Shown: one piece after another, positions 17,149 through 59,014 of the stretch | Numbering within the stretch: the first letter of the stretch is position 1 | Layout: the number at the start of each line of letters is the position of its first letter | DNA from: Lachnospiraceae bacterium | GTDB taxonomy: Bacteria > Bacillota > Clostridia > Lachnospirales > Lachnospiraceae | Assembly (NCBI GenBank): GCA_015058015.1 | Contig: SVDM01000004.1 | Coordinates: forward strand, 105,501 to 169,500 | Direction: 5' to 3' | DNA: 64,000 nt | Made by a program: the position numbers and the translations under genes | The notes under the pieces: model-generated | What the model was told of the DNA's origin: nothing | The model's database searches: none | Seen by the model: only the letters and a program-made list of their open reading frames with translations

Positions 17149-17237
17149 AAAACTACCTCCTCTGTGTACTTTTTGTACAAGACCATTTTAGCACCGAAAT
17201 AGTCTGAAATCAATATTGCGAATGTGAAATTTTCCAT

Positions 17238-17265
17238 TTATTGTTAGCGGACAACATGTTATAAT
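17238..17265 (+). promoter_or_regulatory. Candidate extended -10 promoter for the aldo/keto reductase gene
   Basis: TTATTG, 16 nt spacer, then TGtTATAAT (TATAAT at 17260-17265). Confidence 0.35.
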
Positions 17266-17298
17266 AGACGCGAGAATGTATATTGAAAGGGGATTATT

Positions 17299-18450
17299 AT
17301 GTATTACAACGATTTTCAGGGATTAAAACTATCTGCCCTTGGAATGGGCAACATGAGATTGCCGGTTATGGAGGGCAATGACAGTAAGATTGACAAGGCA
17401 AAGACCAAGGAGATGCTGGACTTTTGCTTTGATGCGGGAATCAATTATTTCGATACGGCTTACGGATATCATGCAGGTAATTCGGAGCTTGTAGTAGGAG
17501 AGATATTAGAAGGACACGACAGAAACACTTTCTATCTGGCATCAAAGTTTCCCGGATATGATTCAAGCAATATGTCAAAGGTTAAGGAAATATTTGAAGA
17601 ACAGCTTAAAAAATGCCGGGTTGACTATTTCGATTTTTATCTCTTCCACAACGTGTGCGAAGCCAATATTGACGGCTACTTAGACCCCAAATTCGGAATA
17701 TTTGATTATCTGATGGAACAAAAGAAGAAAGGACGCATTAAGCACTTAGGCTTTTCTACCCACGGAAGCCATGATACCATTAAGCGCTTCCTGGATGCTT
17801 ACGGCAAGGACATGGAGTTTTGCCAGATTGAGCTAAACTATTATGACTGGACCTTCCAGGATGCCAAAGGCACTGTGGAGATGCTTGATAAATGGAATAT
17901 TCCCGTTTGGGTTATGGAACCGGTAAGGGGCGGCCAGCTTGCTACATTACCGGAAGAAGCCGCGGCTAAGCTTAAAGCTGCAAGGCCAAATGAGGATGTC
18001 CCGGCCTGGGCATTCAGGTTCCTTCAGGGAATTAAGAGCGTAACCATGATTTTATCCGGAATGTCCAATATGGACCAGCTTAAAGCAAATGTGGCCACCT
18101 TTGATGAGAGAAAGCCCCTTAACAAGGAGGAGGAAGAGCTTATCTTAGGTATTGCTGAGGACATGATTAAAAAGACTACGGTTCACTGTACCGCTTGTCA
18201 TTATTGTGTATCAAAATGCCCCCAGGAGCTTGATATTCCTCACCTCTTGAAGCTTTATAATGAGGCTATGGTTGAAGGATCCGGTAATTTCATCTCAGCA
18301 ATGGGAATATCAGTTTTACCGGAGGATAAGAGACCGGACAAATGCGTAGCTTGCGAGTCCTGTATGGAGGTTTGCCCCCAGAATATTGAGATTCCCAAGC
18401 ACCTGGCCGATTTTGCAGAGAAATTACAGCATAATCCCATGGCAGGATAA
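17299..18450 (+). CDS. Aldo/keto reductase fused to a C-terminal 2x[4Fe-4S] ferredoxin-like domain
   Basis: 383 aa. The AKR core carries GMGNMRLP, INYFDTAYGYH and GFSTHG. The C-terminus has two CxxCxxCxxxCP motifs (CTACHYCVSKCP, CVACESCMEVCP). Confidence 0.85.
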   Translation: MYYNDFQGLKLSALGMGNMRLPVMEGNDSKIDKAKTKEMLDFCFDAGINYFDTAYGYHAGNSELVVGEILEGHDRNTFYLASKFPGYDSSNMSKVKEIFEEQLKKCRVDYFDFYLFHNVCEANIDGYLDPKFGIFDYLMEQKKKGRIKHLGFSTHGSHDTIKRFLDAYGKDMEFCQIELNYYDWTFQDAKGTVEMLDKWNIPVWVMEPVRGGQLATLPEEAAAKLKAARPNEDVPAWAFRFLQGIKSVTMILSGMSNMDQLKANVATFDERKPLNKEEEELILGIAEDMIKKTTVHCTACHYCVSKCPQELDIPHLLKLYNEAMVEGSGNFISAMGISVLPEDKRPDKCVACESCMEVCPQNIEIPKHLADFAEKLQHNPMAG

Positions 18451-38360: not shown

Positions 38361-38375
38361 TTCCCTATATATGGG
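38338..38375 (+). promoter_or_regulatory. Inverted CCC-(AT)n-GGG repeats overlapping the acs promoter (candidate operator)
   Basis: CCCATATAGGG (38341-38351) lies in the promoter spacer. CCCTATATATGGG (38363-38375) lies at about +1. The flanking TATCCCATA is shared with the fhs palindrome. Confidence 0.35.
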
Positions 38376-38460
38376 CGCGCGCAAGAGGGGTAGTGTGCCT
38401 TGGGAGAGGAACTTTTCTGTTGTGATTAACAACTCACAAACGGACGGAGGAATATTTATT

Positions 38461-39231
38461 ATGTCGAAGACTATTGCTGTAGCAGGAAAAGGTGGCGTGG
38501 GCAAAACCACCACATGTGGTCTGCTTATTGATTACTTAATCAGACACAACAAGAAACCGGTATTGGCAGTGGATGCAGATGCCAACTCCAACCTTAACGA
38601 GGTTCTCGGTGTAGAGGTAGAAGCTACCCTCGGAGAGATCAGAGAAGAAATCGCCAATGCGGAGATTGCACTTGATAATCCTATTCCCCTCGGAATGTCG
38701 AAACAGGATTATGCAAATTGGAAGTTTAACAGTGCTCTTATTGAAGAAGACGACTTTGACATGCTTGTTATGGGAAGAACCCAGGGCAAGGGCTGTTATT
38801 GTTACGTTAACGGAGTACTTCAATCCCAGATTCAGAAGTTCGCCGGCAATTACCAGTATGTGGTAGTTGATAATGAGGCGGGCATGGAGCATATCAGCAG
38901 AGGACTTCTACCCCATGTTGATATAGTTATTCTTGTAAGCGACTGTTCAAGAAGAGGCATACAAGCTGTTGGAAGAATAGCCAAGCTTATCAAAGAAATC
39001 GAACTTAATCCCAGTGAAGTAAAATTGATTGTTAACAGAGCACCGGGAGGCAAGTTAAATGATGGAATTCTTGAGGAAATCAAGATTCAGGAGCTTGACC
39101 TTGCAGGCGTGCTTCCTCATGATGAGGATGTATACGAGTTTGACTGCGAAGGAAAGCCTACGATTCAATTGCCTGCGGGTTCTGCCATGAGAGTTGAGCT
39201 TGAAAAGGTACTTGACGGTCTCAACCTGTAA
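38461..39231 (+). CDS. cooC: CODH nickel-insertion accessory ATPase CooC (copy 1)
   Basis: ATG 38461 is preceded by acggagga; the upstream extension to 38371 has no RBS. P-loop AVAGKGGVGKTT and Ni-binding CxC (GKGCYCYVN). Confidence 0.85.
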   Translation: MSKTIAVAGKGGVGKTTTCGLLIDYLIRHNKKPVLAVDADANSNLNEVLGVEVEATLGEIREEIANAEIALDNPIPLGMSKQDYANWKFNSALIEEDDFDMLVMGRTQGKGCYCYVNGVLQSQIQKFAGNYQYVVVDNEAGMEHISRGLLPHVDIVILVSDCSRRGIQAVGRIAKLIKEIELNPSEVKLIVNRAPGGKLNDGILEEIKIQELDLAGVLPHDEDVYEFDCEGKPTIQLPAGSAMRVELEKVLDGLNL

Positions 39232-39340: not shown

Positions 39341-41239
39341 ATGGAAGAATTCAAATTAACAACTATTGAGGAGTTTGAAGCGGAAACTAATAAACTTCTC
39401 GAGACAGGCGCTAAAGTTGGCGCTGATTCATGGCAGCAGAGAGCTGCTAATCAGACACCTCACTGTAAGTTTGGTGAGCAGGGTGTTTGCTGTAGAATCT
39501 GTTCTATGGGACCCTGTCGTATTACACCTAAGGCACCCCGTGGAATCTGCGGATGTGATGCTGATGGTATCGTAGCAAGAAACTTCCTTCGTTTTACAGC
39601 GGGTGGTACAGCTACTCACTCAGACCACGGTCGTGAAATTGCTTACACACTTATGGAAGCAAGCCCGGATGGTCCTTACGAAGTAAAGGATCCCGAGAAA
39701 CTTCTTGTTATTGCCAAGGAGTGGGGCGTTGAGACAGAAGGCAGAGACATCTATGATGTTGCTCATGAAGTAGCAGAATTAGGTGTTATGGAATATGGTA
39801 AGGTAAGAGGATTCCAGAGATGGATTAAGAGAGCTACTCCCGAGCGTCAGAAGACATGGGAAGAGCAGGGCGTTGCACCAAGAGCTATCGACCGTGAGGT
39901 TGTTACAGCTATGCATATGACACATATGGGTAACTCCTCATTACCTGAAGCACTTATCAGACAGTCTATCCGTTGCGGTCTTTCCGATGGATGGGGCGGT
40001 TCCATGATGGGAACAGAGTTCTCCGATGTACTTTTCGGTACACCTCACGAGGTGGAGACAGAGGCTAACCTCGGTGTTATGAAAGAGGATATGGTTAATA
40101 TCGTAGTACACGGACATGACCCCTCACTTTCAGAAATGATCGTTAAATATTCAGAGACTCCGGAGATGGTAGCATATGCTAAAGAGCAGGGTGCTAACGG
40201 AATTCAGATTTCCGGTGTTTGCTGTACATCAAACGAAGTAACAATGCGTCACGGAATTCCTATGGCAGGTAACTTTCTTGCACAGGAGAACGTCGTACTT
40301 ACAGGTGCTTGCGAGGCTATCGTAGTAGACGTTCAGTGTATTTTCCCTGCATTAGGACCCTTAAGCAAGTGCTTCCATACAAAGTTCATCACAACATCTG
40401 ACATTTGCCGTCAGCCGGATTCAGAGTTCATTCACTTTGACGCACACAATGCAAAAGAGAATGCTATCGCAATCATTAAGATGGCTTGTGAGAACTTCAA
40501 GAACAGAAAGAAAGAGCTTGTTTACATCCCGCAGATGAAGCAGAAGGCAGTTGTTGGATACTCATGCGAGCAGATTATTAAGAAACTTGACGGTGTTACC
40601 AACTCTAACGTTGATGAGATGGGAACATACAAGCCACTCGTAGAGTGCGTTAACTCAGGTGTTCTTCGTGGTGCTGTTGCTATGGTTGGATGTAACAACC
40701 CGAAACAGAGAGCAGACTTTATGCATGTTGAGCTTATGAAGAAGCTCATTGCTAATGATATTATTCTTGTATTATCAGGATGTTCAGCACAGGCTGCTGC
40801 AAAAGCAGGTCTTATGGATCCAAGAGCTAAAGAGTTCTGTGGACAGGGACTTAAGCGTGTATGTGAGCTTGTTGGTATTCCTCCTGTACTTCACATGGGA
40901 TCATGCGTTGATATCAGCCGTATGATGCGTCTTGTATGTGATCTTGCAAAAGATATGGGCTGCGAGACATACGAACTTCCTGTAGTAGGATGCGCTCCTG
41001 AGTGGATGTCAGAGAAGGCTGTATCAATCGGTAACTATGTTATCGGTACAGGTATTGATACATTCCTTGGAATCAATCCTTACACTTCAGGTTCAGAAAA
41101 AGTTGAAGGAATCCTTAAGGGAAGCATTTCTGAAATGATTGGTGCTAAGTATTTCGAGGAACATGATCTTGACAAATTAGCACAGATGATGATTGACAGA
41201 ATCGAAGAGAAGAGAGCTGCATTAGCAAGCTGTAACTAA
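39341..41239 (+). CDS. acsA: Anaerobic carbon monoxide dehydrogenase catalytic subunit (CooS/AcsA)
   Basis: 632 aa. N-terminal Cys clusters (CKFGEQGVCCRICSMGPCRI, GICGCDADG) and C-cluster region motifs (VHGHDP, SGVCCTSNE, MVGCNNP, HMGSCVD). Confidence 0.95.
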   Translation: MEEFKLTTIEEFEAETNKLLETGAKVGADSWQQRAANQTPHCKFGEQGVCCRICSMGPCRITPKAPRGICGCDADGIVARNFLRFTAGGTATHSDHGREIAYTLMEASPDGPYEVKDPEKLLVIAKEWGVETEGRDIYDVAHEVAELGVMEYGKVRGFQRWIKRATPERQKTWEEQGVAPRAIDREVVTAMHMTHMGNSSLPEALIRQSIRCGLSDGWGGSMMGTEFSDVLFGTPHEVETEANLGVMKEDMVNIVVHGHDPSLSEMIVKYSETPEMVAYAKEQGANGIQISGVCCTSNEVTMRHGIPMAGNFLAQENVVLTGACEAIVVDVQCIFPALGPLSKCFHTKFITTSDICRQPDSEFIHFDAHNAKENAIAIIKMACENFKNRKKELVYIPQMKQKAVVGYSCEQIIKKLDGVTNSNVDEMGTYKPLVECVNSGVLRGAVAMVGCNNPKQRADFMHVELMKKLIANDIILVLSGCSAQAAAKAGLMDPRAKEFCGQGLKRVCELVGIPPVLHMGSCVDISRMMRLVCDLAKDMGCETYELPVVGCAPEWMSEKAVSIGNYVIGTGIDTFLGINPYTSGSEKVEGILKGSISEMIGAKYFEEHDLDKLAQMMIDRIEEKRAALASCN

Positions 41240-41286: not shown

Positions 41287-42066
41287 ATGAAAATTGCTGT
41301 TACAGGCAAGGGCGGGGTAGGAAAGACTACTTTGTCATCAACACTGGCAAGATTATATGCCGAAGAAAACCGTAGTGTTCTTGCTGCGGATGTTGACCCG
41401 GATGCTAACTTAGGCTTGGCTCTCGGATTTACGGAAGAGGAGCTTGATTCTATAGTTCCTATTTCCAAGATGCGAGAGTTGGTTGAAGAAAGAACCGGCG
41501 CAAGTTCCGATGGATTGGGACAATTCTTCAGGCTTAATCCCAAGGTTGATGATATACCGGAGAAATTCGCTAAAGAATGCAACGGTGTAAAGCTTCTTGT
41601 GCTAGGAACGGTAGAGACGGCAAACAGCGGATGTGTCTGCCCGGAGCATGTAATGCTTAAGCGGATAATCTCCCACCTCTTGGTTCAGGATAAGGATGTT
41701 GTTATCCTGGATATGGAAGCAGGGTTAGAGCATCTGGGACGAGGTACTACGGAAGATATGGACCAGTTCATAGTAGTAATAGAGCCCGGAGCCAGAAGCG
41801 TACAGACATACAAGAACGTGAAGAGGCTTGCTAACGAGCTGGGAATTGAACGGGTGAGCGTTGTAGCCAACAAGGTCAGAAACGAAGCTGACGAAGAATT
41901 CATTAAGGATCATATTCCGGCAGAAGATTTACTTGGATTCATCCATTACAATGAAGAAGTGATTGATGCGGACAGACAGGGCAAATCACCATATGATATG
42001 AGTGAAGAAGCCGTTGCCGAGATTCGCACAATCAAGGACAAAATAGATAACATGTTCAATAAATAA
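41287..42066 (+). CDS. cooC: CODH/ACS nickel-insertion accessory ATPase CooC/AcsF (copy 2)
   Basis: 259 aa. P-loop AVTGKGGVGKTT and CxC motif (NSGCVCPEH). Confidence 0.85.
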   Translation: MKIAVTGKGGVGKTTLSSTLARLYAEENRSVLAADVDPDANLGLALGFTEEELDSIVPISKMRELVEERTGASSDGLGQFFRLNPKVDDIPEKFAKECNGVKLLVLGTVETANSGCVCPEHVMLKRIISHLLVQDKDVVILDMEAGLEHLGRGTTEDMDQFIVVIEPGARSVQTYKNVKRLANELGIERVSVVANKVRNEADEEFIKDHIPAEDLLGFIHYNEEVIDADRQGKSPYDMSEEAVAEIRTIKDKIDNMFNK

Positions 42067-42093: not shown

Positions 42094-44220
42094 TTGAGAT
42101 TACTTGACAGAGTTTTTAATGGTGCAACAACCATTTACGAACAAACAGTAAAAGCTGTTGACGAAGCAATTGCAAAATACGGTGCAGATCAGGCAGTTTC
42201 ACTTCCCGACACAGCATTTGCTCTTCCCTGCTACTATGCAGTAACAGGTGTTAAAGTTACAACACTTGGAGAGATGAAAGAAGCTTGTGAATTCCTTAAG
42301 AATTCCAACACAAGAGAGCAGCGTCTTGCTGATGGTTTCACATCAGGTATCGCTACAGCAATCGGTGCAGAGTTCACCGAGGCAATCAAATATATTGAAG
42401 GCAATCCTTACGAAGAGCCAATCGTAGCTCACTTCTCAGATGCTATGGTTCGTGAGCTCGGACTTCCCCTGGTTACAGAGGATATCCCCGGTGTTGCAGT
42501 ATTCATCGGTGAGGCTCCTTCAACACAGGAACTTTGCGATTTAATTAAACAGTATCAGTCACAGGGTATCTTCGTTGCACTTGTTGGTAAGTGTATCGAC
42601 CAGGCTGTAGAAGGAAATGCTAAGTTAGGATTCAACGTACGTTGTACACCTCTCGGATATCACATCGAGTCAGTAGTACATATCGTATCTGTTGCTCTAA
42701 GAGCAGGTCTTATCTTCGGTAACATTACACCGGGACACAACGAAGAACTTAAAGCATACACAATGAAGAGAGTTAAGGCATTCGTTAATGCTTACGCTCC
42801 TGTAGATGATGTAACAGTTGCATTTGGTGCAGGCGCAATCGCTTACGGTTTCCCTGTTATCTCTAACGATACCAATGACCTTAAGCCGGTTCCTAAGAGC
42901 ATCGTTATCCAGCCGGATACAACTAAGTTCAATGCTACATCAATCGAGGCAAGAGATGTCAGAGTTAAGATTTCTAACGTTGATATTCCTGTACCTTACG
43001 GCTCAGCTTTCGAGGGTGAGATTATCCGTAAGGGTGATATGAAAATCGAAGTTGATGGTTCCAGAATGGACTGCTTCGAGCTTGTTCAGTCCAAACCTCT
43101 TGCAGAAGTTGAAGACCACAAGATTGAAGTATTCGGAGATGACTTCGACAAATATGAAGACGGAACAAAGATTTCTATGGCTATCATCGCTGAAGTTGCC
43201 GGTAAGAGCATGCAGTCAGACTTCGAGTCAGTTATGGAAAGAAAGTTCCATGCATTTATCAACTGCGCTGAAGGTATCATGCATACAGGACAGCGTGATA
43301 TGATTCGTATCCGTGTAAGCAAAGATGCTTTCAATGAAGGATTCAGAGCTAAACACTTCGGTGAAATCCTTTACGCTAAGTTAAAGAGCGAGTACGATGC
43401 AGTTGTTGACAAATGTCAGATTAAGATTTACATCGGTGAGGAGACAACGAGACTTCGTAACGAACTTGCTACTCCTACCTTTGATCACAGAGATGAGAGA
43501 CTTGGTTCTCTTACAGATGAGAGCGTTGACGAATTCTACACATGTATTCTTTGTCAGGCATTCTCACCCAGCCATGTATGTATCGTAACACCTGAGAGAC
43601 TTGGACTTTGCGGTGCTGTTTCATGGTTAGATGCTAAGGCAACACATGAGCTTGATCCTAACGGACCTTGCCAGATCGTTAAGAAAGAACACGTTATCGA
43701 CGAGAGAGTTGGACGTATCGAAGAAGTTAACGAGGCAGTTAAGAAGTACTCACAGGGTGCTCTTGAAGAAGTTACACTTTACTCAATCATGGAAGATCCT
43801 ATGACATCATGCGGATGTTTCGAGTGTATCTGTGGTATCGAGCCTATGTCAAACGGTGTTGTTATCGTTAACCGTGAGCATACAGGAATCACACCTGTTG
43901 GTATGACATTCTCAGAGCTCGCAGCTATGACCGGTGGTGGAGTTCAGACTCCCGGATTCATGGGACATGGTAAGCATTTCATCGCTTCTAAGAAGTTCAT
44001 GAAGGCTGAAGGCGGAATCCAGAGAATCGTTTGGTTACCCAAGGCTCTTAAGGAGCAGGTAGCTGACAAGCTTAACGCTACAGCAAAAGAACTTTACGGA
44101 ATCGACAACTTCACAGACATGATCGCTGATGAGACAATCGTTGAGGGCGATCCTGAAGCATTAATGAACTTCTTAACAGAGAAGAATCATCCTGCTTTAA
44201 GCTTAGAGCCGATGATGTAA
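42094..44220 (+). CDS. acsB: Acetyl-CoA synthase subunit AcsB, copy 1
   Basis: TTG start 7 nt after AGGAGG. 708 aa. The A-cluster region has CILCQAFSPSHVC, LGLCGAVSW and SCGCFEC. Confidence 0.95.
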   Translation: MRLLDRVFNGATTIYEQTVKAVDEAIAKYGADQAVSLPDTAFALPCYYAVTGVKVTTLGEMKEACEFLKNSNTREQRLADGFTSGIATAIGAEFTEAIKYIEGNPYEEPIVAHFSDAMVRELGLPLVTEDIPGVAVFIGEAPSTQELCDLIKQYQSQGIFVALVGKCIDQAVEGNAKLGFNVRCTPLGYHIESVVHIVSVALRAGLIFGNITPGHNEELKAYTMKRVKAFVNAYAPVDDVTVAFGAGAIAYGFPVISNDTNDLKPVPKSIVIQPDTTKFNATSIEARDVRVKISNVDIPVPYGSAFEGEIIRKGDMKIEVDGSRMDCFELVQSKPLAEVEDHKIEVFGDDFDKYEDGTKISMAIIAEVAGKSMQSDFESVMERKFHAFINCAEGIMHTGQRDMIRIRVSKDAFNEGFRAKHFGEILYAKLKSEYDAVVDKCQIKIYIGEETTRLRNELATPTFDHRDERLGSLTDESVDEFYTCILCQAFSPSHVCIVTPERLGLCGAVSWLDAKATHELDPNGPCQIVKKEHVIDERVGRIEEVNEAVKKYSQGALEEVTLYSIMEDPMTSCGCFECICGIEPMSNGVVIVNREHTGITPVGMTFSELAAMTGGGVQTPGFMGHGKHFIASKKFMKAEGGIQRIVWLPKALKEQVADKLNATAKELYGIDNFTDMIADETIVEGDPEALMNFLTEKNHPALSLEPMM

Positions 44221-44485: not shown

Positions 44486-46615
44486 ATGACACTTTATGAA
44501 AGAATTTTTGCAGGTTCAGATGCAGTCTATGGATTGACCTGCGGAGCAATCGATGATGCCATCGCCAAATATGGCGCTGACAAGGCAATTTCATTCCCCG
44601 AAACAGCTTATTGCCTTCCCTGTTACTACGCAGTTACAGGACAGAAGATTAAGACTCTTGCAGAATTAAAGCAGGGATGTGAGACATTAAAGTCTCTTAA
44701 TTCCGCTGAGACAAGAGAAGCCAACCCCTTACTCTCAGGTGTAGCTACAGCTCTTGGTGCAGAGTTCTTGGAAGCATTGAAGTATATTGACGGTTCAACC
44801 CCCTATGCAGAACCCTATTATGGTCATTTACCCGATGCTATTATTCGTGAGCTGGGAGTACCTCTTGTAACGGGAGATATTCCCGGAGTTGCTGTTATTA
44901 TCGGAGAAGCACCCACAGCACAGGAAGGCGTAGATCTTATTAAGAGTTATCAGGCACAGGGTATCCTTGTTACTCTTGTGGGCAAGATTGTTGAGCAGGC
45001 ACAGAGTCTTAACTACAATATGGGATACGGCGTAAGAGTTGTTCCCTTGGGAACTGACATCACATCAGTAATCCATGTGGTTTCAGTTGCTTTAAGAGCA
45101 GCCCTTATCTTTGGTAATGTGACACCCGGAGATGCAGCCGGTCTTATGAAGTACACAGCAGAAAGAGTACCTGCATTTGTTAATGCATTTAAGCCTATTG
45201 ATGATGTTGTTCTTTCAGCAGGAGCAGGCGCTATTGCCCTTGGATTCCCGGTAATCACCAACGAAACAGAGAATGTTACAGAGGTTCCCAAGGCACTTCT
45301 TTCACAGCCTGACGTATCAAAGTTTAATCAGTTATCACTTGAAACAAGAGAAATCAAAATCAAGATTACCAAGATTGATATTCCCGTTGCTTATGCATCA
45401 GCATTTGAAGGCGAGATAATAAGAAAAGCCGATATGAAGATTGAGGCAGACGGATCAAGAGTCGATTGCTTCGAGCTTGTACAGGCAAAAGGTCTTGACG
45501 AGATTGAAGATCATAAGATTGAGGTTATCGGCAAAGACATTGATGAGTTTGAAGACGGAGAGAAGATCCAGATGGCTCTTATCGCTGAAGTCGCAGGTAA
45601 ATCAATGCAGACTGACTTTGAGTCTGTTATGGAAAGAAAATTCCATGCATTCATCAACTGCATCGAAGGCGTAATGCATACAGGACAGCGTGATATGATA
45701 CGTATCCGTGTAAGCAAAGATGCTTTTAATGCAGGTTTTCGAGCAAAACACTTTGGTGAAGTTCTTTATGCTAAGTTAAAGAGCGAATACGAAGCAGTAG
45801 TAGACAAATGTCAGATTAAGATCATAACTGATCCTGACAAATGTAGCGATCTTCGTCATAACCTTGCTATTCCCACATTTGATCATAGAGACGAAAGACT
45901 CGGCTCCATGACTGATGAGAGTGTAGACGAATTCTATACATGTATTCTTTGCCAAGCATTCTCACCAAGCCACGTATGTATCATCACACCAGAAAGACTC
46001 GGTCTTTGCGGTGCTGTTTCATGGCTTGATGCCAAGGCTACCAATGAGCTTGATCCCAACGGACCTTGCCAGATTGTTAAGAAAGAGCATGTAATTGATG
46101 AGAGAGTAGGAAGATATGAAGAAGTAGATGAAGCTGTTAAGAAGTATTCTCAGGGTGCATTAGAGCATGTTACACTCTACTCTATTATGGAAGACCCCAT
46201 GACATCCTGCGGATGTTTCGAGTGTATCTGCGGTATCGAGCCTATGTCAAATGGCGTAGTTATCGTTAACCGTGAGCATACCGGTGTTACACCTATCGGT
46301 ATGACCTTCTCAGAACTTGCTTCCATGACCGGCGGTGGAGTTCAGACTCCGGGATTTATGGGACACGGAAAGCATTTCATTGCTTCCAAGAAGTTTATGA
46401 AGGCAGAAGGCGGAATCGAAAGAATAGTATGGCTTCCCAAGGCATTAAAGGAGCAGATAGCTGACAAGCTTAACGCTACAGCCAAGGATTTATATGGAAT
46501 TGACAACTTCACAGATATGGTAGCTGACGAGACCATTGCAGAAGATGCAGAAACTCTGATGAACTTCTTAACAGAGAAGAATCATCCTGCATTAAAGTTA
46601 GAACCCATGATGTAA
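44486..46615 (+). CDS. acsB: Acetyl-CoA synthase subunit AcsB, copy 2 (tandem paralogue)
   Basis: 709 aa with a ggagg RBS. It has the same A-cluster motifs as copy 1. The N-terminal ~300 aa are clearly more diverged than the rest. Confidence 0.95.
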   Translation: MTLYERIFAGSDAVYGLTCGAIDDAIAKYGADKAISFPETAYCLPCYYAVTGQKIKTLAELKQGCETLKSLNSAETREANPLLSGVATALGAEFLEALKYIDGSTPYAEPYYGHLPDAIIRELGVPLVTGDIPGVAVIIGEAPTAQEGVDLIKSYQAQGILVTLVGKIVEQAQSLNYNMGYGVRVVPLGTDITSVIHVVSVALRAALIFGNVTPGDAAGLMKYTAERVPAFVNAFKPIDDVVLSAGAGAIALGFPVITNETENVTEVPKALLSQPDVSKFNQLSLETREIKIKITKIDIPVAYASAFEGEIIRKADMKIEADGSRVDCFELVQAKGLDEIEDHKIEVIGKDIDEFEDGEKIQMALIAEVAGKSMQTDFESVMERKFHAFINCIEGVMHTGQRDMIRIRVSKDAFNAGFRAKHFGEVLYAKLKSEYEAVVDKCQIKIITDPDKCSDLRHNLAIPTFDHRDERLGSMTDESVDEFYTCILCQAFSPSHVCIITPERLGLCGAVSWLDAKATNELDPNGPCQIVKKEHVIDERVGRYEEVDEAVKKYSQGALEHVTLYSIMEDPMTSCGCFECICGIEPMSNGVVIVNREHTGVTPIGMTFSELASMTGGGVQTPGFMGHGKHFIASKKFMKAEGGIERIVWLPKALKEQIADKLNATAKDLYGIDNFTDMVADETIAEDAETLMNFLTEKNHPALKLEPMM

Positions 46616-46620
46616 ATGAT

Positions 46621-46846
46621 ATAGACTCTCAAAGTCACCCGGCTCGTGCTTGCACGGAAGCCGGAGTGACCTTGAGAGGCTAACAAATATGAGCATGCAG
46701 CCCGATAGGGCGGAATGCGAATATTTGTAGAAACGCAAGAGCTGCGAAGCGGCGAGCGTTTCGTATATCATTTAGAAATGAAAGCGGAATGCGAATATTT
46801 GTAGAAACGCAAGAGCTGCGAAGCGGCGAGCGTTTCGTATATCATT
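46621..46846 (+). repeat. Unclassified structured intergenic element, locus A: long hairpin, conserved linker, then a hairpin module duplicated in tandem
   Basis: Hairpin 46626-46678 has a CUUG apical loop. The 40-nt linker 46689-46728 is 36/40 identical to 55431-55470. A 63-nt unit is repeated exactly at 46710-46772 and 46784-46846. Confidence 0.5.
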
Positions 46847-46963: not shown

Positions 46964-46992
46964 TTGACATGCCCGTCAATTCTGTGTATAAT
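46964..46992 (+). promoter_or_regulatory. Consensus sigma-A promoter for acsD-acsC-acsE
   Basis: TTGACA (46964-46969), 17 nt spacer, TATAAT (46987-46992). The -35 lies within TTGACatgcccGTCAA. Confidence 0.65.
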
Positions 46993-53998: not shown

Positions 53999-54631
53999 AT
54001 GTCAAAAATTGATGAAATCGCTGCTGCTGTAGAAGCAGGAAAAGCAAAAATCGTAGGCGGACTTGTAGAGGAAGCTATCAAAGAGGGATGCGATCCCACA
54101 GAAATCCTTAACGTTGGTATGATCGACGCTATGGGTGTTGTAGGTGATAAGTTCAAGAAAAACGAGATCTTCGTACCTGAGATGCTTGTTGCAGCTCGTG
54201 CTATGAAGAAGGGTGTTGAGGTTCTTAAGCCCCATTTGGCAGGAGATAGCTCAGCTACAATCGGAAAATACATCATCGGAACAGTTGCAGGTGACCTTCA
54301 TGATATCGGAAAGAACCTTGTAGCTATGATGATCGAGTCTGCAGGCTTCGAAGTAATCGACCTTGGTGTTGATGTACCTGCTGAGAAGTTTGTTGAGGCT
54401 ATCAAAGAAAACCCAGATTGTAAGGTAGTTGGTGTATCTGCACTTCTTACAACAACAATGCCTGCTATGAAGGATACTGTTAAGGCTATCATCGATGCAG
54501 GATTACAGAGCCAGGTTAAGATCATGGTTGGTGGAGCTCCTATTACTCAGGAGTTCGCTGATGAGATCGGCGCTGACGCTTATACACAGGACGCAGCTTC
54601 AGCAGCTCAGGTTGCTAAGACTTTAGTATAA
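53999..54631 (+). CDS. Cobalamin-binding corrinoid protein (B12-binding domain with N-terminal helical cap)
   Basis: 210 aa. DxHxxG motif (GDLHDIGKN), plus SALLTTT and MVGGAP. Confidence 0.9.
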   Translation: MSKIDEIAAAVEAGKAKIVGGLVEEAIKEGCDPTEILNVGMIDAMGVVGDKFKKNEIFVPEMLVAARAMKKGVEVLKPHLAGDSSATIGKYIIGTVAGDLHDIGKNLVAMMIESAGFEVIDLGVDVPAEKFVEAIKENPDCKVVGVSALLTTTMPAMKDTVKAIIDAGLQSQVKIMVGGAPITQEFADEIGADAYTQDAASAAQVAKTLV

Positions 54632-54657
54632 TCTGTGTAGATTAATCAGTATTTCTA

Positions 54658-54695
54658 AGAACCGGGGAAGTTTTCCCCGGTTCTTTTGCTTTTTG
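54658..54695 (+). terminator. Rho-independent terminator after the corrinoid protein gene
   Basis: agaaccgggga-agtt-tccccggttct hairpin followed by TTTGCTTTTT. Confidence 0.85.
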
Positions 54696-54848
54696 GGCGC
54701 ATAAGTATACAGTGTAAAATAAATCAAAAATGAGATTAAACATTGTATAAAAAACGTTTATTTATTAGAGATTACGTGCTATAATAACATGGTATGTTTT
54801 TGGAATAAATATGCATAATTTTTGTAAAGTGTAAGAGGGGATGAGCAG

Positions 54849-55355
54849 ATGACAACGGAGCACAAACATGAGCATGGACATGAGCATGAGCATGAACACG
54901 GTCACGACCATGGACATGTACACAGCCACGAACATTCCCATTACCACGAGCATAGTCATGAACATGAACACGATCACGGACATTCACATAGCCATGAGGA
55001 GATGTGTGATCACAGCCATGGAGAGGGTGAGGCACATACACATGTATTAGAGGATGGTACAATTATTACCCATACTCATCACGGACATCACCATTCAAAG
55101 GACCATATCAAGGCTGTATCCAACAGATTGGCGAGAGCTATCGGTCATCTTGAGTCCGTTAAGAGAATGGTTGAGGATGACAGAGATTGCTCAGAAGTAC
55201 TTATACAGCTGGCCGCTGTTAAGTCGGCAATTAATAATACAGGTAAGGTTATTCTTCAGGAGCATATTAAACATTGCGTTATTGATGCGGTGGAGCATGA
55301 TGATGATGAATCTCTTGAAGAATTATACAAGGCAATAGATAAGTTTATGAAGTGA
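54849..55355 (+). CDS. CsoR/RcnR/InrS-family metal-sensing repressor (DUF156 core) with a ~80-residue His-rich N-terminal extension
   Basis: 168 aa. Residues 1-82 are dominated by HEH/HGH/HSH repeats. The core NRLARAIGHLESVKRMVEDDRDCSEVLIQLAAVKSAINNTGKVILQEHIKHC has Cys114, His139 and Cys143 (spacing C-25-H-4-C). Confidence 0.8.
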   Translation: MTTEHKHEHGHEHEHEHGHDHGHVHSHEHSHYHEHSHEHEHDHGHSHSHEEMCDHSHGEGEAHTHVLEDGTIITHTHHGHHHSKDHIKAVSNRLARAIGHLESVKRMVEDDRDCSEVLIQLAAVKSAINNTGKVILQEHIKHCVIDAVEHDDDESLEELYKAIDKFMK

Positions 55356-55361
55356 GCGATA

Positions 55362-55520
55362 TGGGGACGAAAGGTCTTACAGCGATTGTGCTTGCACAAA
55401 GAGATGAAAGACTTTTCGGGCCTAACGTACATGAGCATGTAGCCCGATAGGGCGGAATGTGAATGTATGTCGAATCGTGAGAGTTGTATGCAACGGAACG
55501 ATTCGAAGTATCGCGATAGG
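55362..55520 (+). repeat. Unclassified structured intergenic element, locus B (same family as 46621-46846)
   Basis: Outer stem cgaaaggtctt / aagacttttcg. Apical tgtg-CTTG-caca. The conserved linker 55431-55470 is 36/40 identical to locus A. 3' hairpin tcgaatcg ... cgattcga with inner gttg-tatg-caac. Confidence 0.5.
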
Positions 55521-55559
55521 GAACGCATATCAACAATATTTATAAAGGAGGTACCCCAT

Positions 55560-55877
55560 ATGTGCGAAGGCAATAGAATTACCAGCAACTGTGAGGCGGC
55601 AGGCCATGACTGCAGTCATTGCGCAGACAGCGACGGTGCAGGTGGATGTGCACATTCAACCAATGATGCTCCGGCTCAAAGAACCATGGAAGATTACCTG
55701 GACCTTACTTATAAGCAGAATCAGGTAATAGCGCTTAAACTTGATGCATATGCCAAGGACCTTCGTAAAGCAGGAAGGAACGATGTGGCAGATCAGTTAA
55801 CCAGAGCCATTCCTGAGTTCGAAAAGGGGAATATGTATATTAATCTTGCAAAGTCAATGTTGCAGGAGAGATTTTAG
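55560..55877 (+). CDS. Small Cys/His-rich putative metal-binding protein
   Basis: ATG 55560 lies 7-8 nt after aaggagg; the track ORF start at 55467 lies inside the structured element and has no RBS. The N-terminus is MCEGNRITSNCEAAGHDCSHCADSDGAGGCAH. The C-terminal helical part resembles that of the next protein. Confidence 0.55.
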   Translation: MCEGNRITSNCEAAGHDCSHCADSDGAGGCAHSTNDAPAQRTMEDYLDLTYKQNQVIALKLDAYAKDLRKAGRNDVADQLTRAIPEFEKGNMYINLAKSMLQERF

Positions 55878-55928
55878 ATTGAGAGAATAACTGTTCAGGG
55901 AACAGATAAAGTATAAGGAGGCTTTACT

Positions 55929-56459
55929 ATGAGCGAGCACAATCACGACCATGAATGCTGCCATGAGCATTCACACGAACACACACATGAGCACGGACAT
56001 TGTCACGAGCATACACATGAGCACGGACATACCCATGATCATGAGCATACCCACGATCATGAACACCTTCATACACATGAGCATACACATGCAGATGGAA
56101 CAACACATGAGCACGGACATGTACATCATCACACCCATGAGCACACAGGTGACCATGATCATGTAGATGCAGGACATGCACATACACATGACGGTGAACA
56201 TGGACATGACCATGAGCACGGACATCCACATACACATGATCATTCTCATGGAGAGAAGAAGGATTCTAATGTGGCGCTTCTTGCTTATATGTTAGATCAT
56301 AATGAGCACCATGCCGAAGAGCTGGTTGGAGTAGCTGACAAGTTGAAAGAAGCAGGATTCGACGTTCCCGCGGGCGAAATAATGGAAGGCGTTGAGTTCT
56401 TTAAGCAGGGCAATGCAAAGCTTGCAAAGGCTTTGGAAGTAATAAAAGCGCACAACTAA
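55929..56459 (+). CDS. Histidine-rich putative nickel/cobalt-binding protein (His-rich N-terminus plus helical C-terminal domain)
   Basis: 176 aa with an aaggagg RBS. About 110 residues of HEH/HTH/HDH repeats including a CC and a further C, then a non-repetitive helical domain (LLAYMLDHNEHHAEELVGVADKLKEAG...GNAKLAKALEVIK). Confidence 0.7.
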   Translation: MSEHNHDHECCHEHSHEHTHEHGHCHEHTHEHGHTHDHEHTHDHEHLHTHEHTHADGTTHEHGHVHHHTHEHTGDHDHVDAGHAHTHDGEHGHDHEHGHPHTHDHSHGEKKDSNVALLAYMLDHNEHHAEELVGVADKLKEAGFDVPAGEIMEGVEFFKQGNAKLAKALEVIKAHN

Positions 56460-56486
56460 GATTCACACTAATCGGAGGTGGCAAAT

Positions 56487-56675
56487 ATGTGTTTAGCAAC
56501 AGCTTATAAGAATAAAGAGACAAAAGAGCAGATTATTTGCGAGAATATTACTAAGATTCTTATCGACGGAGATAATATTACAATGCTTGATATTTTAGGT
56601 GATGAGATAAAGGTTGAAGGAAAGATTTCAATGGTAGACCTTACCAAGAGTGTTGTTATTATCGATGCGGCTTAA
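56487..56675 (+). CDS. cooT: CooT-family small nickel-binding protein
   Basis: ATG 56487 lies 8 nt after ggagg and gives a 62-aa protein starting MCLA. Cys2 is the Ni ligand in characterised CooT. The size and alternating beta-strand pattern fit CooT. Confidence 0.65.
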   Translation: MCLATAYKNKETKEQIICENITKILIDGDNITMLDILGDEIKVEGKISMVDLTKSVVIIDAA

Positions 56676-56704
56676 GAATATTTATTTAATGGAGATGAAG
56701 AATT

Positions 56705-57517
56705 ATGAAAGCTATTAAGAAGATTTTATCATTAGCACTTGTATGCGCAATGGTTGTAGCCCTTGGAGCATGCGGACAGAAAACAGAAGAAAAGAAGGCA
56801 GCTTCTATCACAGGACCTAAGGACTTAAACGGCAAGAAGGTTGGAGTTCAGACAGGAACCACAGGAGATATCTTTATATCGGATGATAAAGAATTACCGG
56901 ATGTTAAAGTGGAGCGTTTCAGCAAGGGTGCTGAAGCAGTACAGGCACTTTCACAGGGTAAACTTGATGCAGTTGTAATCGATAACGAACCTGCTAAGGC
57001 ATTTGTTAAAGAAGTAAAGGGACTTAAGATTCTTGATACAGAGTATGTTCAGGAAGATTATGCCATTGCAATCAAAAAAGACCGTGCTGACGGACTTAAG
57101 GATAAGATTAATAAGGCTTTGGCAGAGCTTAAAGCTGACGGAACTATAGACAAGATTGTTAGCTATTACATCTATGAAGATGAGAGCAAGCGTGGAGACA
57201 GATATGTACCTTCACAGGAAGCTAAAACCAACGGTAAGCTGGTTATGGCTACCAACGCTGCATTCCCTCCATACGAGTTTGTAGAAAGTCAGGAGATTGT
57301 GGGAATTGACGTTGACATTGCTTTGGCTATTGCTGATAAGCTTGGTATGGAACTTAAGATTGAGGATATGGAATTTGATTCAATCATCAGCGCTGTTCAG
57401 GCCGGAAAAGCTGACATCGGAGTTGCCGGAATGACGGTTACAGAAGACAGAAAGAAGAACGTTGATTTCTCTGATACATATTACACAGGACGTCAGGTAA
57501 TCATCGTTAAAGCGTAG
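56705..57517 (+). CDS. Polar amino-acid ABC transporter substrate-binding lipoprotein with circularly permuted domain order
   Basis: 270 aa with lipobox LGAC. The sequence starts with the segment that is normally C-terminal (LNGKKVGVQTGTTGD...DGTIDKIVSYY). It ends with the segment that is normally N-terminal (KLVMATNAAFPPYEF...GIDVDIALAIADKLG...DFSDTYY). Confidence 0.85.
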   Translation: MKAIKKILSLALVCAMVVALGACGQKTEEKKAASITGPKDLNGKKVGVQTGTTGDIFISDDKELPDVKVERFSKGAEAVQALSQGKLDAVVIDNEPAKAFVKEVKGLKILDTEYVQEDYAIAIKKDRADGLKDKINKALAELKADGTIDKIVSYYIYEDESKRGDRYVPSQEAKTNGKLVMATNAAFPPYEFVESQEIVGIDVDIALAIADKLGMELKIEDMEFDSIISAVQAGKADIGVAGMTVTEDRKKNVDFSDTYYTGRQVIIVKA

Positions 57518-57564
57518 ATTTTAGTCGAAGTTTTGCCCTCGATAAATAAATCGGGGGCATATCT

Positions 57565-58281
57565 TTGTTTATTGAATTGGAGGAAGAGCAAGTGGAACAG
57601 CTAGCAGAGAAATTTGTCCAGAACTTCATAGCCGATAACAGATGGCAGTATCTTGTTAACGGCCTTGGTGTTACATTAAGGGTGACATTTTTTGCATTGA
57701 TAATAGGTATTGTTCTCGGATTCTTAATAGGAGCCATAACGTCTACCAATAAGTTAAACGGCACATTGAAGATTCCCAATGCCATCTGCAAATTATATAT
57801 TACCATTATAAGAGGAACGCCTGTTGTAGTTCAGCTTCTTATAATTTATTTTGTAATATTCGGTGCTGTTGATATTGATAAGGTTACTGTTGCGGTATTG
57901 GCATTCGGTTTTAACTCTGCCGCATATGTTGCGGAGATATTCCGTTCGGGTATCATGTCCATAGACCCGGGTCAGTTCGAAGCGGGACGAAGCCTCGGAT
58001 TCAATTATATTGAGACCATGAGACATATTATTATGCCTCAGGCATTTAAGAATGTACTTCCTGCCCTTGGTAATGAGTTTATTGTATTGCTGAAGGAGAC
58101 TTCCGTTGCAGGCTATATTGCCCTGCAGGACCTTACCAAAGGCGGAGATATTATAAGGAGCCGTACATATGATGCATTTATGCCTCTTATTGCGGTAGCA
58201 CTTATCTACCTTGTTTTGGTTATTATCTTCCAGGCATTGGTTAATCGAATGGAGAGGAGGTTAAGAAGCAGTGACAGGTAG
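57565..58281 (+). CDS. Polar amino-acid ABC transporter permease
   Basis: 238 aa. The His/Glu/Gln/Arg-type permease signature region is [28 protein letters not shown]. The start is uncertain: TTG 57565, or in-frame GTG 57592 preceded by GGAGGA. Confidence 0.85.
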
Positions 58282-59014
58282 TGATGAAGTATTAATAAAG
58301 GTTGAGAATCTCTGCAAGGATTTCGGAGATCTCAAGGTTTTGAAAAATATCAACGAAGAGATCAAAAAGGGCGAGGTTGTGGTTATAGTCGGACCTTCGG
58401 GTTCAGGTAAATCCACCTTTCTTCGTTCATTAAATCTCTTAGAGAAGCCCACAAGCGGTCAGATCTTTTTTGAAGGGGACGACATAACAGATCCTAAGGT
58501 GGATCTTGATCTTCACAGGCAGAAGATGGGAATGGTGTTCCAGCACTTTAACCTTTTCCCGCATATGACCATTAAGAAGAATCTTACCATTGCCCCCATG
58601 AAGCTTTTGAAAAAGACTGAGAAAGAAGCCGAAGAGCGCGCTATGGAACTTTTACGAATGGTAGGGCTTGAGGATAAGGCGGATGGCTATCCGTCCCAGT
58701 TATCCGGTGGACAGAAACAACGTGTTGCAATTGTTCGTTCTCTTGCAATGAATCCGGATGTTATGCTTTTTGATGAGCCTACTTCAGCTTTAGACCCTGA
58801 GATGGTAGGCGAAGTATTGGAGATTATGAAGAAGCTGGCAGCTGACGGAATGACTATGGTTGTAGTAACTCATGAGATGGGATTTGCCAGAGAAGTGGCA
58901 GATAGGGTTTTATTTATGGCTGACGGGGAGATCTGTGAGCAGAATACTCCGGGTGACTTCTTCGACAACCCTCAGAATCCCAGATTACAGGATTTTCTTG
59001 CGAAGGTGTTATAA
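58271..59014 (+). CDS. Polar amino-acid ABC transporter ATP-binding protein
   Basis: 247 aa. GTG start overlaps the permease stop. Walker [10 protein letters not shown], signature [11 protein letters not shown] and Walker [12 protein letters not shown]. Confidence 0.93.

Follow-up and report, generated by a model that had tools for sequence, protein, structure and literature searches.

To our knowledge, the route by which nickel reaches the C-cluster of carbon monoxide dehydrogenase (CODH) and the A-cluster of acetyl-CoA synthase (ACS) in acetogens is still unclear. A block of four genes (g1–g4) in the genome of an uncultured Lachnospiraceae bacterium raises the question of whether such a route is encoded beside the enzyme itself. 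The block lies in a 64,000-nt stretch of DNA, referred to here as the window, whose coordinates are used throughout, and a complete Wood-Ljungdahl carbonyl-branch cluster (CODH, ACS, corrinoid iron-sulfur protein (CFeSP), methyltransferase (MeTr) and RACo) ends just before it. An original prediction, made from the DNA letters, took the block for a nickel sensing, buffering and delivery module. We conclude, with a probability of roughly 55%, that this operon is under metal control and serves to supply and buffer nickel for the adjacent CODH/ACS. Within it, a CooJ-like/CooT nickel chaperone pair linked to CODH/ACS is well supported, because genes for His-rich DUF8180 proteins mostly adjoin cooT, the pair often takes the head position in CODH/ACS clusters, and the g3 hairpin model resembles CooJ, if not significantly and without the canonical CooJ motif. 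L numbers denote loci and P numbers representative proteins.

The genes of the block and their products

The block is preceded on the + strand by the intrinsic terminator of the upstream Wood-Ljungdahl/corrinoid gene row (54657..54685), a 13-bp stem with seven GC pairs followed by the T-run TTGCTTTTTG, and by a predicted promoter (54756..54785) composed of a GTTTATTTATT box and the extended −10 element TGcTATAAT at 54777-54785. The arrangement GTTTATTTATT...TTACGTG(A/C)TATAAT is invariant, or almost so, in five orthologous loci of different species while the surrounding DNA has diverged, which is good evidence that the predicted promoter is real. The terminator, the extended −10 promoter and the four co-directional genes named in the original prediction are thus all present in the sequence, as are the Cys-rich product of g2 and the His-rich product of g3, and its assignments of g1 to PF02583 (E=9e-28) and of g4, with a Met-Cys start, to PF10133 were borne out.

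g4 (56487..56675, + strand; 62 aa, with Cys2), the putative CooT nickel chaperone, matches PF10133 at 59 bits against a cut-off of 27 and covers profile positions 1-59 of 60; its NCBI product name is 'CooT family nickel-binding protein'. It found no match among PDB sequences at E<=0.1, and its tie to RrCooT and ChCooT is through the profile. In Rhodospirillum rubrum the nickel ligand of CooT is Cys2, and CooC, CooT and CooJ mutants require added nickel (PMC6006190).

g3 (55929..56459, + strand; 176 aa), the CooJ-like protein, is composed of a His-rich region of ~105 aa and a DUF8180 hairpin with the motif YMLDHNEHHAEEL, which in the AlphaFold2 (AF2) model consists of two helices with a predicted local distance difference test score (pLDDT) of 93. 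g2 (55560..55877, + strand; 105 aa, the form in public gene calls) is its Cys-rich paralogue. The protein begins MCEGN behind a Shine-Dalgarno sequence AAGGAGG at 55546, has five Cys among its first 30 residues, and in the orthologue alignment shows the invariant motif C11-x6-C18-x2-C21-x8-C30 plus Cys2. Its C-terminal DUF8180 hairpin is without the H/H/E motif residues, and residues 43-103 of the AF2 model form a helical hairpin with pLDDT above 90.

Both proteins were placed in DUF8180 from the precomputed PF26551 labels of their homologues together with the alignment. All 12 homologues of the g3 C-terminal 71 aa carry the PF26551 (DUF8180) label; those on g2 homologues are weak or faint. 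Neither protein found a match in NCBIfam or in a Pfam copy that does not contain PF26551, searches of PDB sequences with g2, the g3 C-terminus and the DUF8180 profile gave no usable match, and pairwise BLASTP of g2 against g3 was not significant (E=0.63). The two align in register over the DUF8180 domain, where seven columns (N, L, G, A, F, G and A) do not vary, and because they also share the same predicted hairpin, we read them as paralogues on the strength of the family alignment and the structure models. Single-copy DUF8180 proteins elsewhere often hold both a His-rich stretch and CxxC...C just before the hairpin, so that the g2/g3 pair looks like a split of the His-rich and Cys features between duplicates.

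In the NCBI record of this metagenome-assembled genome (MAG), MBE6014588-90 are g1, g2 and g4 (MBE6014589 being g2 and MBE6014590 CooT), and g3 is without an accession. Gene calls for many database homologues of g3 begin only at an internal Met ahead of the hairpin and give 56-58 aa, so that His-rich DUF8180 proteins are probably under-annotated.

DUF8180 proteins and their linkage to CooT and CODH/ACS

An exhaustive profile search gave 648 representative clusters for DUF8180 (about 650 at 50% identity) at E<=1e-3. The domain forms the C-terminal ~65 aa of these proteins, with two helices and the signature YMLxHNxxHAxEL ... FxxGN, in which the first His of HNxxHAxE is kept in 135 of 143 sequences, the Asn in 143, the second His in 136 and the Glu in 129. 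Composition was counted over the 148 newly listed representatives (P0024-P0171), of which 73 exceed 12% His and 31 have at least four Cys. Met-His is the start of 71 of the 148, many of which open with MH(L/I)xxDExGNxxxHG, and we take this N-terminal Met-His to be reminiscent of the MHE nickel site of HypA. In P0039 and P0058 the segment before the His-rich stretch resembles, by eye, the C-terminal part of a CobW/COG0523-type metallochaperone GTPase. The motif HTHxxDGTxxTHxH is common to g1 (55041-55100, HTHVLEDGTIITHTHH) and g3 (56080-56130, HTHADGTTHEHGH) and occurs in other DUF8180 proteins as well (e.g. P0032 and P0082).

Gene neighbourhoods were surveyed in 80 loci, obtained by scanning metagenome contigs with a g3-type alignment and hence biased to g3-like proteins; neighbours were found by our own open reading frame (ORF) calling followed by a search with the window proteins. 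cooT lies directly downstream of the DUF8180 gene in 35 of the 43 distinct variants with at least 300 nt downstream, at a gap of −20 to +49 nt (the −127 nt of L161, the single exception, probably reflects faulty ORF calling), and all 35 neighbouring CooT proteins start with Met-Cys. CODH, ACS or CFeSP is encoded in the locus for 13 of the 22 variants with at least 3.5 kb of flank. The DUF8180-cooT pair often heads cooC-cooS-acsB clusters, the usual order being DUF8180-cooT-metF-cooC-cooS-cooC-acsB-acsD... (e.g. L138, L141, L142, L144 and L151), and the pair is found in a Treponema MAG (L131) too.

A second layout (L156, L158, L182, L183, L185 and L188) has the DUF8180 gene without cooT, flanked by a divergent gene for a corrinoid-binding protein (together with a DUF156 repressor gene in L183) and by a convergent SBP_bac_3/ABC transporter. 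The association of DUF8180 with a DUF156 sensor and a transporter of the amino-acid type, seen around the window block, thus comes up again in another gene order.

CooJ is hard to recognise by sequence. The architecture of g3 is that of CooJ, with a His-rich region and a helical domain in a protein encoded beside cooT and CODH. When the g3 hairpin was searched against 350,542 chains with Foldseek, the CooJ structure 6HK5 ranked second, with TM-scores of 0.76 and 0.84 and a root-mean-square deviation of 1.6 Å over 63 columns, and its identity of 24% was at the top of the list. We regard g3 as probably CooJ-like in its mode of working and do not file it as a member of CooJ.

g1, a putative nickel-sensing repressor

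g1 (54849..55355, + strand; 168 aa) is a CsoR/RcnR-family (DUF156) repressor in which a polyHis extension of ~80 N-terminal residues precedes the core. Residues 88-165 match positions 3-78 of the 78 positions of PF02583 at 96.9 bits against a cut-off of 22.8. The closest PDB sequence is that of InrS from Synechocystis (5FMN, E=1.3e-19), with several Cu(I) CsoR structures ranking behind it, and InrS H21, C53, H78 and C82 align with g1 H82, C113, H138 and C142. g1 thus bears out the polyHis CsoR/InrS-like repressor that had been predicted for this position, with InrS as its best solved relative and the four ligand positions kept. H82, at the W position, sits in HTHHGHHHS, a His-rich stretch before helix 1, and the ligand set is the H-C-H-C version of the W-X-Y-Z fingerprint, which has been described for DUF156 sensors together with a conserved X-position Cys at the start of helix 2 (PMC5016687). 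The core ligands C113, H138 and C142 are kept in the window and in four of the five orthologues (L133, L134, L007 and L183). In the orthologue of L009-L012 the X-position Cys is replaced by Val and the Y-position His by Tyr; the long polyHis extension and the operon are retained.

Recurrence of the block and the CooC genes of the cluster

The order g1-g2-g3-g4 recurs in L007, L008 (partial), L009-L012, L133 and L134, with g2 identities of 68-79%, and in L007 and L134, as in the window, the block follows an acs cluster and a corrinoid protein gene. The association of the four-gene block with acs clusters holds in these three species; other acetogen-type clusters carry DUF8180-cooT at the cluster head and have no DUF156 gene. 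Among the loci surveyed, the Cys-rich paralogue was found only in the window-type group, and so was the sensor gene, apart from a copy in L183 that points the opposite way. What sets the window lineage apart is limited to these two genes.

The acs cluster of the window itself contains a gene for a cooC-like P-loop ATPase (38371..39231, + strand) upstream of cooS (39341..41239) and a second CooC-like ATPase gene (41287..42066, + strand) between cooS and acsB; both products match PF01656 and PF13614. Two cooC genes inside the acs operon had been predicted, and they do lie there, on either side of cooS. By analogy with known systems, they would be the partners of the maturation set. No nickel transporter family was matched among the neighbour proteins tested, in agreement with the predicted absence of a nickel importer or exporter.

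A Clostridiales-1 RNA between g1 and g2

The spacer between g1 and g2 holds an insertion of ~191 nt (55357-55547), placed exactly between the g1 stop codon and the g2 Shine-Dalgarno sequence. Its core is a Clostridiales-1 RNA (RF01699; copy B, 55357..55513, + strand), which scores 99.9 bits against a gathering score of 48 and spans the full model, positions 1-166, and the spacer RNA is strongly structured (fold z = −6.1). In L134, L133, L007 and L009, aligned with the window, the g1 stop codon is 13-23 nt from the g2 Shine-Dalgarno sequence, and a search of the orthologous operons for RF01699 gave no match. The conserved structured RNA-like element of the original prediction is thus structured, and it is conserved at the level of the family; at this position it is not. 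Nor did its place in the module hold up, because the insertion is absent from the orthologous operons and the element is multi-copy and found beside unrelated genes. The Clostridiales-1 RNA is a generic repeated element and neither a nickel regulator nor a conserved part of the module.

A second copy in the window (copy A, 46616-46771, + strand; 101.7 bits against 48, model positions 1-166) lies directly after the stop codon of the second acsB, and the two copies differ by compensatory changes in P2. The 3' part of copy A (46710-46772) is repeated at 46784-46846, and each repeat ends in a hairpin picked up by the terminator scan. In L142 a Clostridiales-1 RNA (17151-17368) likewise follows directly on the acsB stop codon of an unrelated acs cluster; there is none after acsB in L134, L138, L141, L144 and L151.

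A scan for the conserved core, with one genome per species, found at least 118 loci (L013-L130), nearly all of them in Lachnospiraceae. Several genomes are multi-copy, and some carry head-to-tail arrays of 2-4 copies at a period of about 105-185 nt (RF01699 arrays in L018, L020, L066, L118 and L123; variant arrays in L015 and L073), and a shorter variant with the same core falls below the Rfam threshold (e.g. L017 and L043). The flanking genes are varied housekeeping genes, among them those for GroEL, acetolactate synthase, RF3, L19, PFL, S1 and MetK; those for GroEL (four times), acetolactate synthase, RF3, L19 and PFL are found upstream of the RNA.

Of the 58 copies preceded by a co-directional gene, 19 begin at the stop codon of that gene. 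Among 33 distinct abutting cases, 11 show a closing helix of 7-17 bp, at the span expected for it, that holds the whole stop codon plus up to 10 nt of coding sequence, as in L076, L069, L046, L053, L123 and copy A of the window, where TAAATGATATA pairs with TATATCATTTA (46613-46623 with 46764-46774). Because such a helix contains the upstream stop and last codons, its 3' strand is complementary to the ends of unrelated genes. In the minimum free energy (MFE) fold of copy B, the 5' strand 55359-55366 pairs with the g2 start region CCCCAUAU (55554-55561); the CCCC that enables this pairing is window-specific. A coupling of the closing helix to translation termination is speculation, to which we would give rather long odds. 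If true, a terminating ribosome would melt the closing helix and free the strand 55359-55366 that otherwise pairs with the g2 start. Equally conjectural, and hardly to be counted on, is the joint proposition that Clostridiales-1 would be a ribosome-sensed element coupling termination to the downstream mRNA, here the translation of the chaperones to that of the sensor, and that DUF8180 would be the CooJ equivalent so far missing from acetogen CODH/ACS, here under a nickel sensor.

Proposed working of the block and alternative explanations

Direct observation covers the identities of the parts, the conserved promoter, the pairing of DUF8180 with cooT and the frequent place of this pair in cooC-cooS-acsB rows. 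In the proposed scheme, g1 would repress its own promoter and, like DUF156 sensors, which come off DNA upon effector binding (PMC5016687), would leave it upon binding Ni(II), so that the operon would be on when nickel is plentiful. g3 would be the functional counterpart of CooJ, its disordered His-rich tail storing several nickel ions and its dimerising helical hairpin binding one nickel at an H-x3-H-x2-E site. g2, presumably a duplicate of g3 whose His tail was swapped for the four-cysteine motif, may bind nickel, zinc or an Fe-S cluster, or pair with g3. g4 would take nickel on Cys2 and pass it on through the two CooC ATPases to the CODH C-cluster, and possibly to the ACS A-cluster, a delivery step modelled on the R. 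rubrum CooCTJ system (PMC6006190). The Clostridiales-1 RNA is predicted to be a later insertion, transcribed within the mRNA and dispensable for the module, which would at most alter the coupling of g2-g4 expression to g1.

Several points weigh against this scheme, whose steps are predictions from sequence. The Foldseek match between the g3 hairpin and CooJ has E=0.8, which is not significant, and because the g2 model matches only generic ferritin/rubrerythrin-like helix pairs, helical-hairpin matches, that of g3 to CooJ included, are of low specificity. The nickel site of CooJ, H(W/F)xxHxxxH within a helix, is strictly conserved (bioRxiv 10.64898/2026.03.10.710785); it is absent from the DUF8180 helix, where HNxxHAxE stands instead, and the only string that fits it among the 148 DUF8180 representatives occurs in one protein, in the His-rich tail. 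The DUF8180 profile finds no CooJ chain among the PDB sequences at E<=10. The CooC/CooT/CooJ-type set of the original prediction therefore stands in its architecture, in its linkage to cooT and CODH and in its two cooC genes, but not in the canonical CooJ motif or in sequence homology to CooJ, neither of which was found. As for the sensor, the L009 orthologue of g1 has Val and Tyr at two ligand positions, and the x-C-H-C core is the fingerprint of Cu(I) CsoR too. A GC-rich CsoR/RcnR-type operator was looked for in the g1 promoter and not found; the promoter holds AT-rich imperfect palindromes only, with no GC-tract palindrome, and these are not conserved in the orthologues, nor is the sequence 3' of the −10 element conserved across the orthologous loci. 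DUF8180-cooT pairs also occur without CODH within 10 kb, in L131 and in loci of the L189 type, a frequent human-gut contig type with ArgRS, MGMT, MntP and SpoVA as neighbours. Finally, induction by excess nickel suits a store or buffer better than a delivery system needed under nickel limitation, and since derepression at high metal fits a buffer or store better than scavenging, buffering may be the main role.

Some of these points would suit the main alternative, an operon for general nickel or metal storage and detoxification, similar to the Hpn type, whose position beside CODH/ACS would be only loosely functional and which would serve nickel enzymes of any kind or just shield the cell against surplus metal. 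A derepression-type sensor would activate its genes at high metal (PMC5016687), the His-rich and Cys-rich tails resemble buffers, and the pairs without CODH (L189 type; Treponema L131) and the apparent fusions to a CobW-like GTPase part, judged by eye (P0039 and P0058), point the same way. We consider such a store possible, if on the whole doubtful: the CODH, ACS or CFeSP genes found with 13 of the 22 variants that have enough flank usually form one row with cooC and cooS, no role of CooT other than that of an accessory protein of CODH is known to date (PMC6006190), and three species (the window, L007 and L134) have the block in this position behind the acs cluster. The same sensor could also respond to Cu(I), or to Co, Zn or persulfide, in which case the operon would guard oxygen- and copper-sensitive Ni-Fe-S enzymes from mis-metallation. 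The C-H-C at the X, Y and Z positions of g1 equals that of Cu(I) CsoR, copper CsoR structures come next among its PDB matches (4M1P at 4.5e-15, then 3AAI and 4ADZ), the best NCBIfam match is RicR, although below threshold, and a Cys4 motif such as that of g2 would be well matched to Cu(I) or Zn. Against this stand the top rank of the nickel sensor InrS, the retained W-position His (InrS H21) and His-rich stretch before helix 1, and the genes under control, which include that for CooT and whose relatives are linked to CODH and not to copper exporters; neither copA nor copZ is nearby. We think another effector unlikely.

It is far less credible still that the spacer RNA is a dedicated cis-regulator, such as a metal riboswitch, that gates g2-g4. 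The RNA is sense-oriented inside the operon with no promoter-like site after it, the g2 start region CCCCAUAU is base-paired with the 5' strand of the RNA in the MFE fold, and the downstream gene is on the RNA strand in 74 of 101 loci of the family scan. Relatives of g1-g4 are nevertheless encoded in none of the 118 other RNA loci, the family occurs in tandem arrays, in several copies per genome and beside unrelated housekeeping genes, and the RNA is absent from all orthologous operons. Neither NiCo nor any other riboswitch family was matched at E<=1 in 54600-56800, and Weinberg et al. (2010, PMC2864571) judged the Clostridiales-1 motif to be probably an RNA but neither cis-regulatory nor a switch. 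We therefore rejected a metal riboswitch as the reading of this RF01699 member and retain the nickel-supplying and buffering operon as the preferred account of the block.

Neighbouring genes and sites

A polar-amino-acid-type ABC transporter (SBP_bac_3 binding protein, permease and ATPase; 56705..59014, + strand) begins 29 nt after cooT, and no terminator was found between them. In every orthologous locus with enough downstream sequence (L007, L009-L011 and L132-L134), cooT is likewise followed by SBP_bac_3, permease and ATPase genes after a gap of 3-52 nt. This spacing, and the lack of a terminator, suggest that the transcription unit may be longer than four genes, although a weak promoter-like site lies within the end of cooT. 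The transporter proteins match only generic polar-amino-acid models (Gln, Cys, Arg and His), all below the curated cut-offs. The binding protein (56705-57517) looks circularly permuted relative to amino-acid-binding-protein models, with residues 169-269 matching the N-terminal part of the model and residues 28-158 the C-terminal part.

Upstream of the block, the acs cluster comprises, besides the genes for the cooC-like ATPase, CooS and the second CooC, two tandem acsB genes, both CFeSP subunits, a methyltransferase, DUF3786, RACo, a second pterin-binding protein and a corrinoid protein. The acsB paralogues (42094-44220 and 44486-46615; 708 and 709 aa) are both full-length and carry the same three Pfam domains. 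A perfect sigma-70 consensus (46964-46992, + strand; TTGACA, 17 nt, TATAAT; 12 of 12 matches) lies inside the cluster, between the second acsB with its RNA and the CFeSP small-subunit gene (47123), and suggests an internal promoter there.

Comparison with known systems

The statement that this arrangement had not been described for acetogen CODH/ACS maturation was too broad. A 2026 study had already described cooT and candidate cooJ genes within clade E CODH operons that are connected with one-carbon genes (PMC13056359), and CooJ proteins with an N-terminal His-rich region exist in Shewanella fodinae (SfCooJ) and Clostridium pasteurianum BC1 (bioRxiv 10.64898/2026.03.10.710785), so that the general idea was already known. 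Our literature searches found no mention of DUF8180 and nothing relevant for CooT together with InrS. To judge by the literature that could be searched, the equation of DUF8180 with a partner of CooT is new, as are the motif of its own that DUF8180 carries, the Cys-rich paralogue and the DUF8180-cooT pair behind an InrS-like sensor. As the regular partner of CooT, DUF8180 supplies concrete candidates that can be tested as the nickel donor still lacking for acetogens of the gut and rumen, and the window variant, with its sensor and Cys-rich duplicate, would be a natural system for studying sensing, storage and delivery.

The spacer RNA agrees with the Clostridiales-1 family as described, being a full-length member found in Lachnospiraceae. 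The additions to that description are the insertion at this site, the multi-copy occurrence, the tandem arrays and a closing helix that often takes in the upstream stop codon; for an orphan RNA, facts such as the insertion, the copy number and the stop codon in the closing helix could guide functional work.

InrS and g1 share the four ligand positions and a His-rich stretch ahead of helix 1. They differ in that InrS controls a nickel efflux gene, whereas g1 precedes chaperone or storage genes, and in that the polyHis extension of g1 is much longer (~80 aa). Hpn and Hpn-like of Helicobacter pylori parallel the metal-binding proteins of the block in being small and made up largely of His plus some Cys, and their presumed role is to buffer nickel and supply nickel enzymes (PMC8704837); unlike g2 and g3, Hpn has no DUF8180 hairpin and no link to CooT, and there is no sequence relationship between them.

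Closer to g3, when compared by description, are SfCooJ and the C. pasteurianum BC1 CooJ, in which an N-terminal His-rich region likewise precedes a helical metal-binding domain and whose genes accompany cooT and a CODH of clade E or clade F. Both, in contrast to g3, keep the HWxxHxxxH site and the C-T-J gene order.

The R. rubrum cooFSCTJ system and the window share a P-loop ATPase CooC, a CooT of ~7 kDa with Cys2 and a small helical protein whose tail is long and His-rich, and in both all three components are encoded beside a Ni-CODH. The helical CooJ protein of R. rubrum is dimeric, and a g3 dimer is its predicted counterpart only. In the window, the J-like gene comes before the T gene in a separate operon downstream of the cluster, and the cooC genes are part of the cluster itself; the His-rich region is at the N-terminus and the helix motif is HNxxHAxE, not HWxxHxxxH. 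The window further differs from R. rubrum in its extra Cys-rich paralogue, its dedicated DUF156 sensor and its target enzyme, which is the bifunctional CODH/ACS of an acetogen-type cluster.

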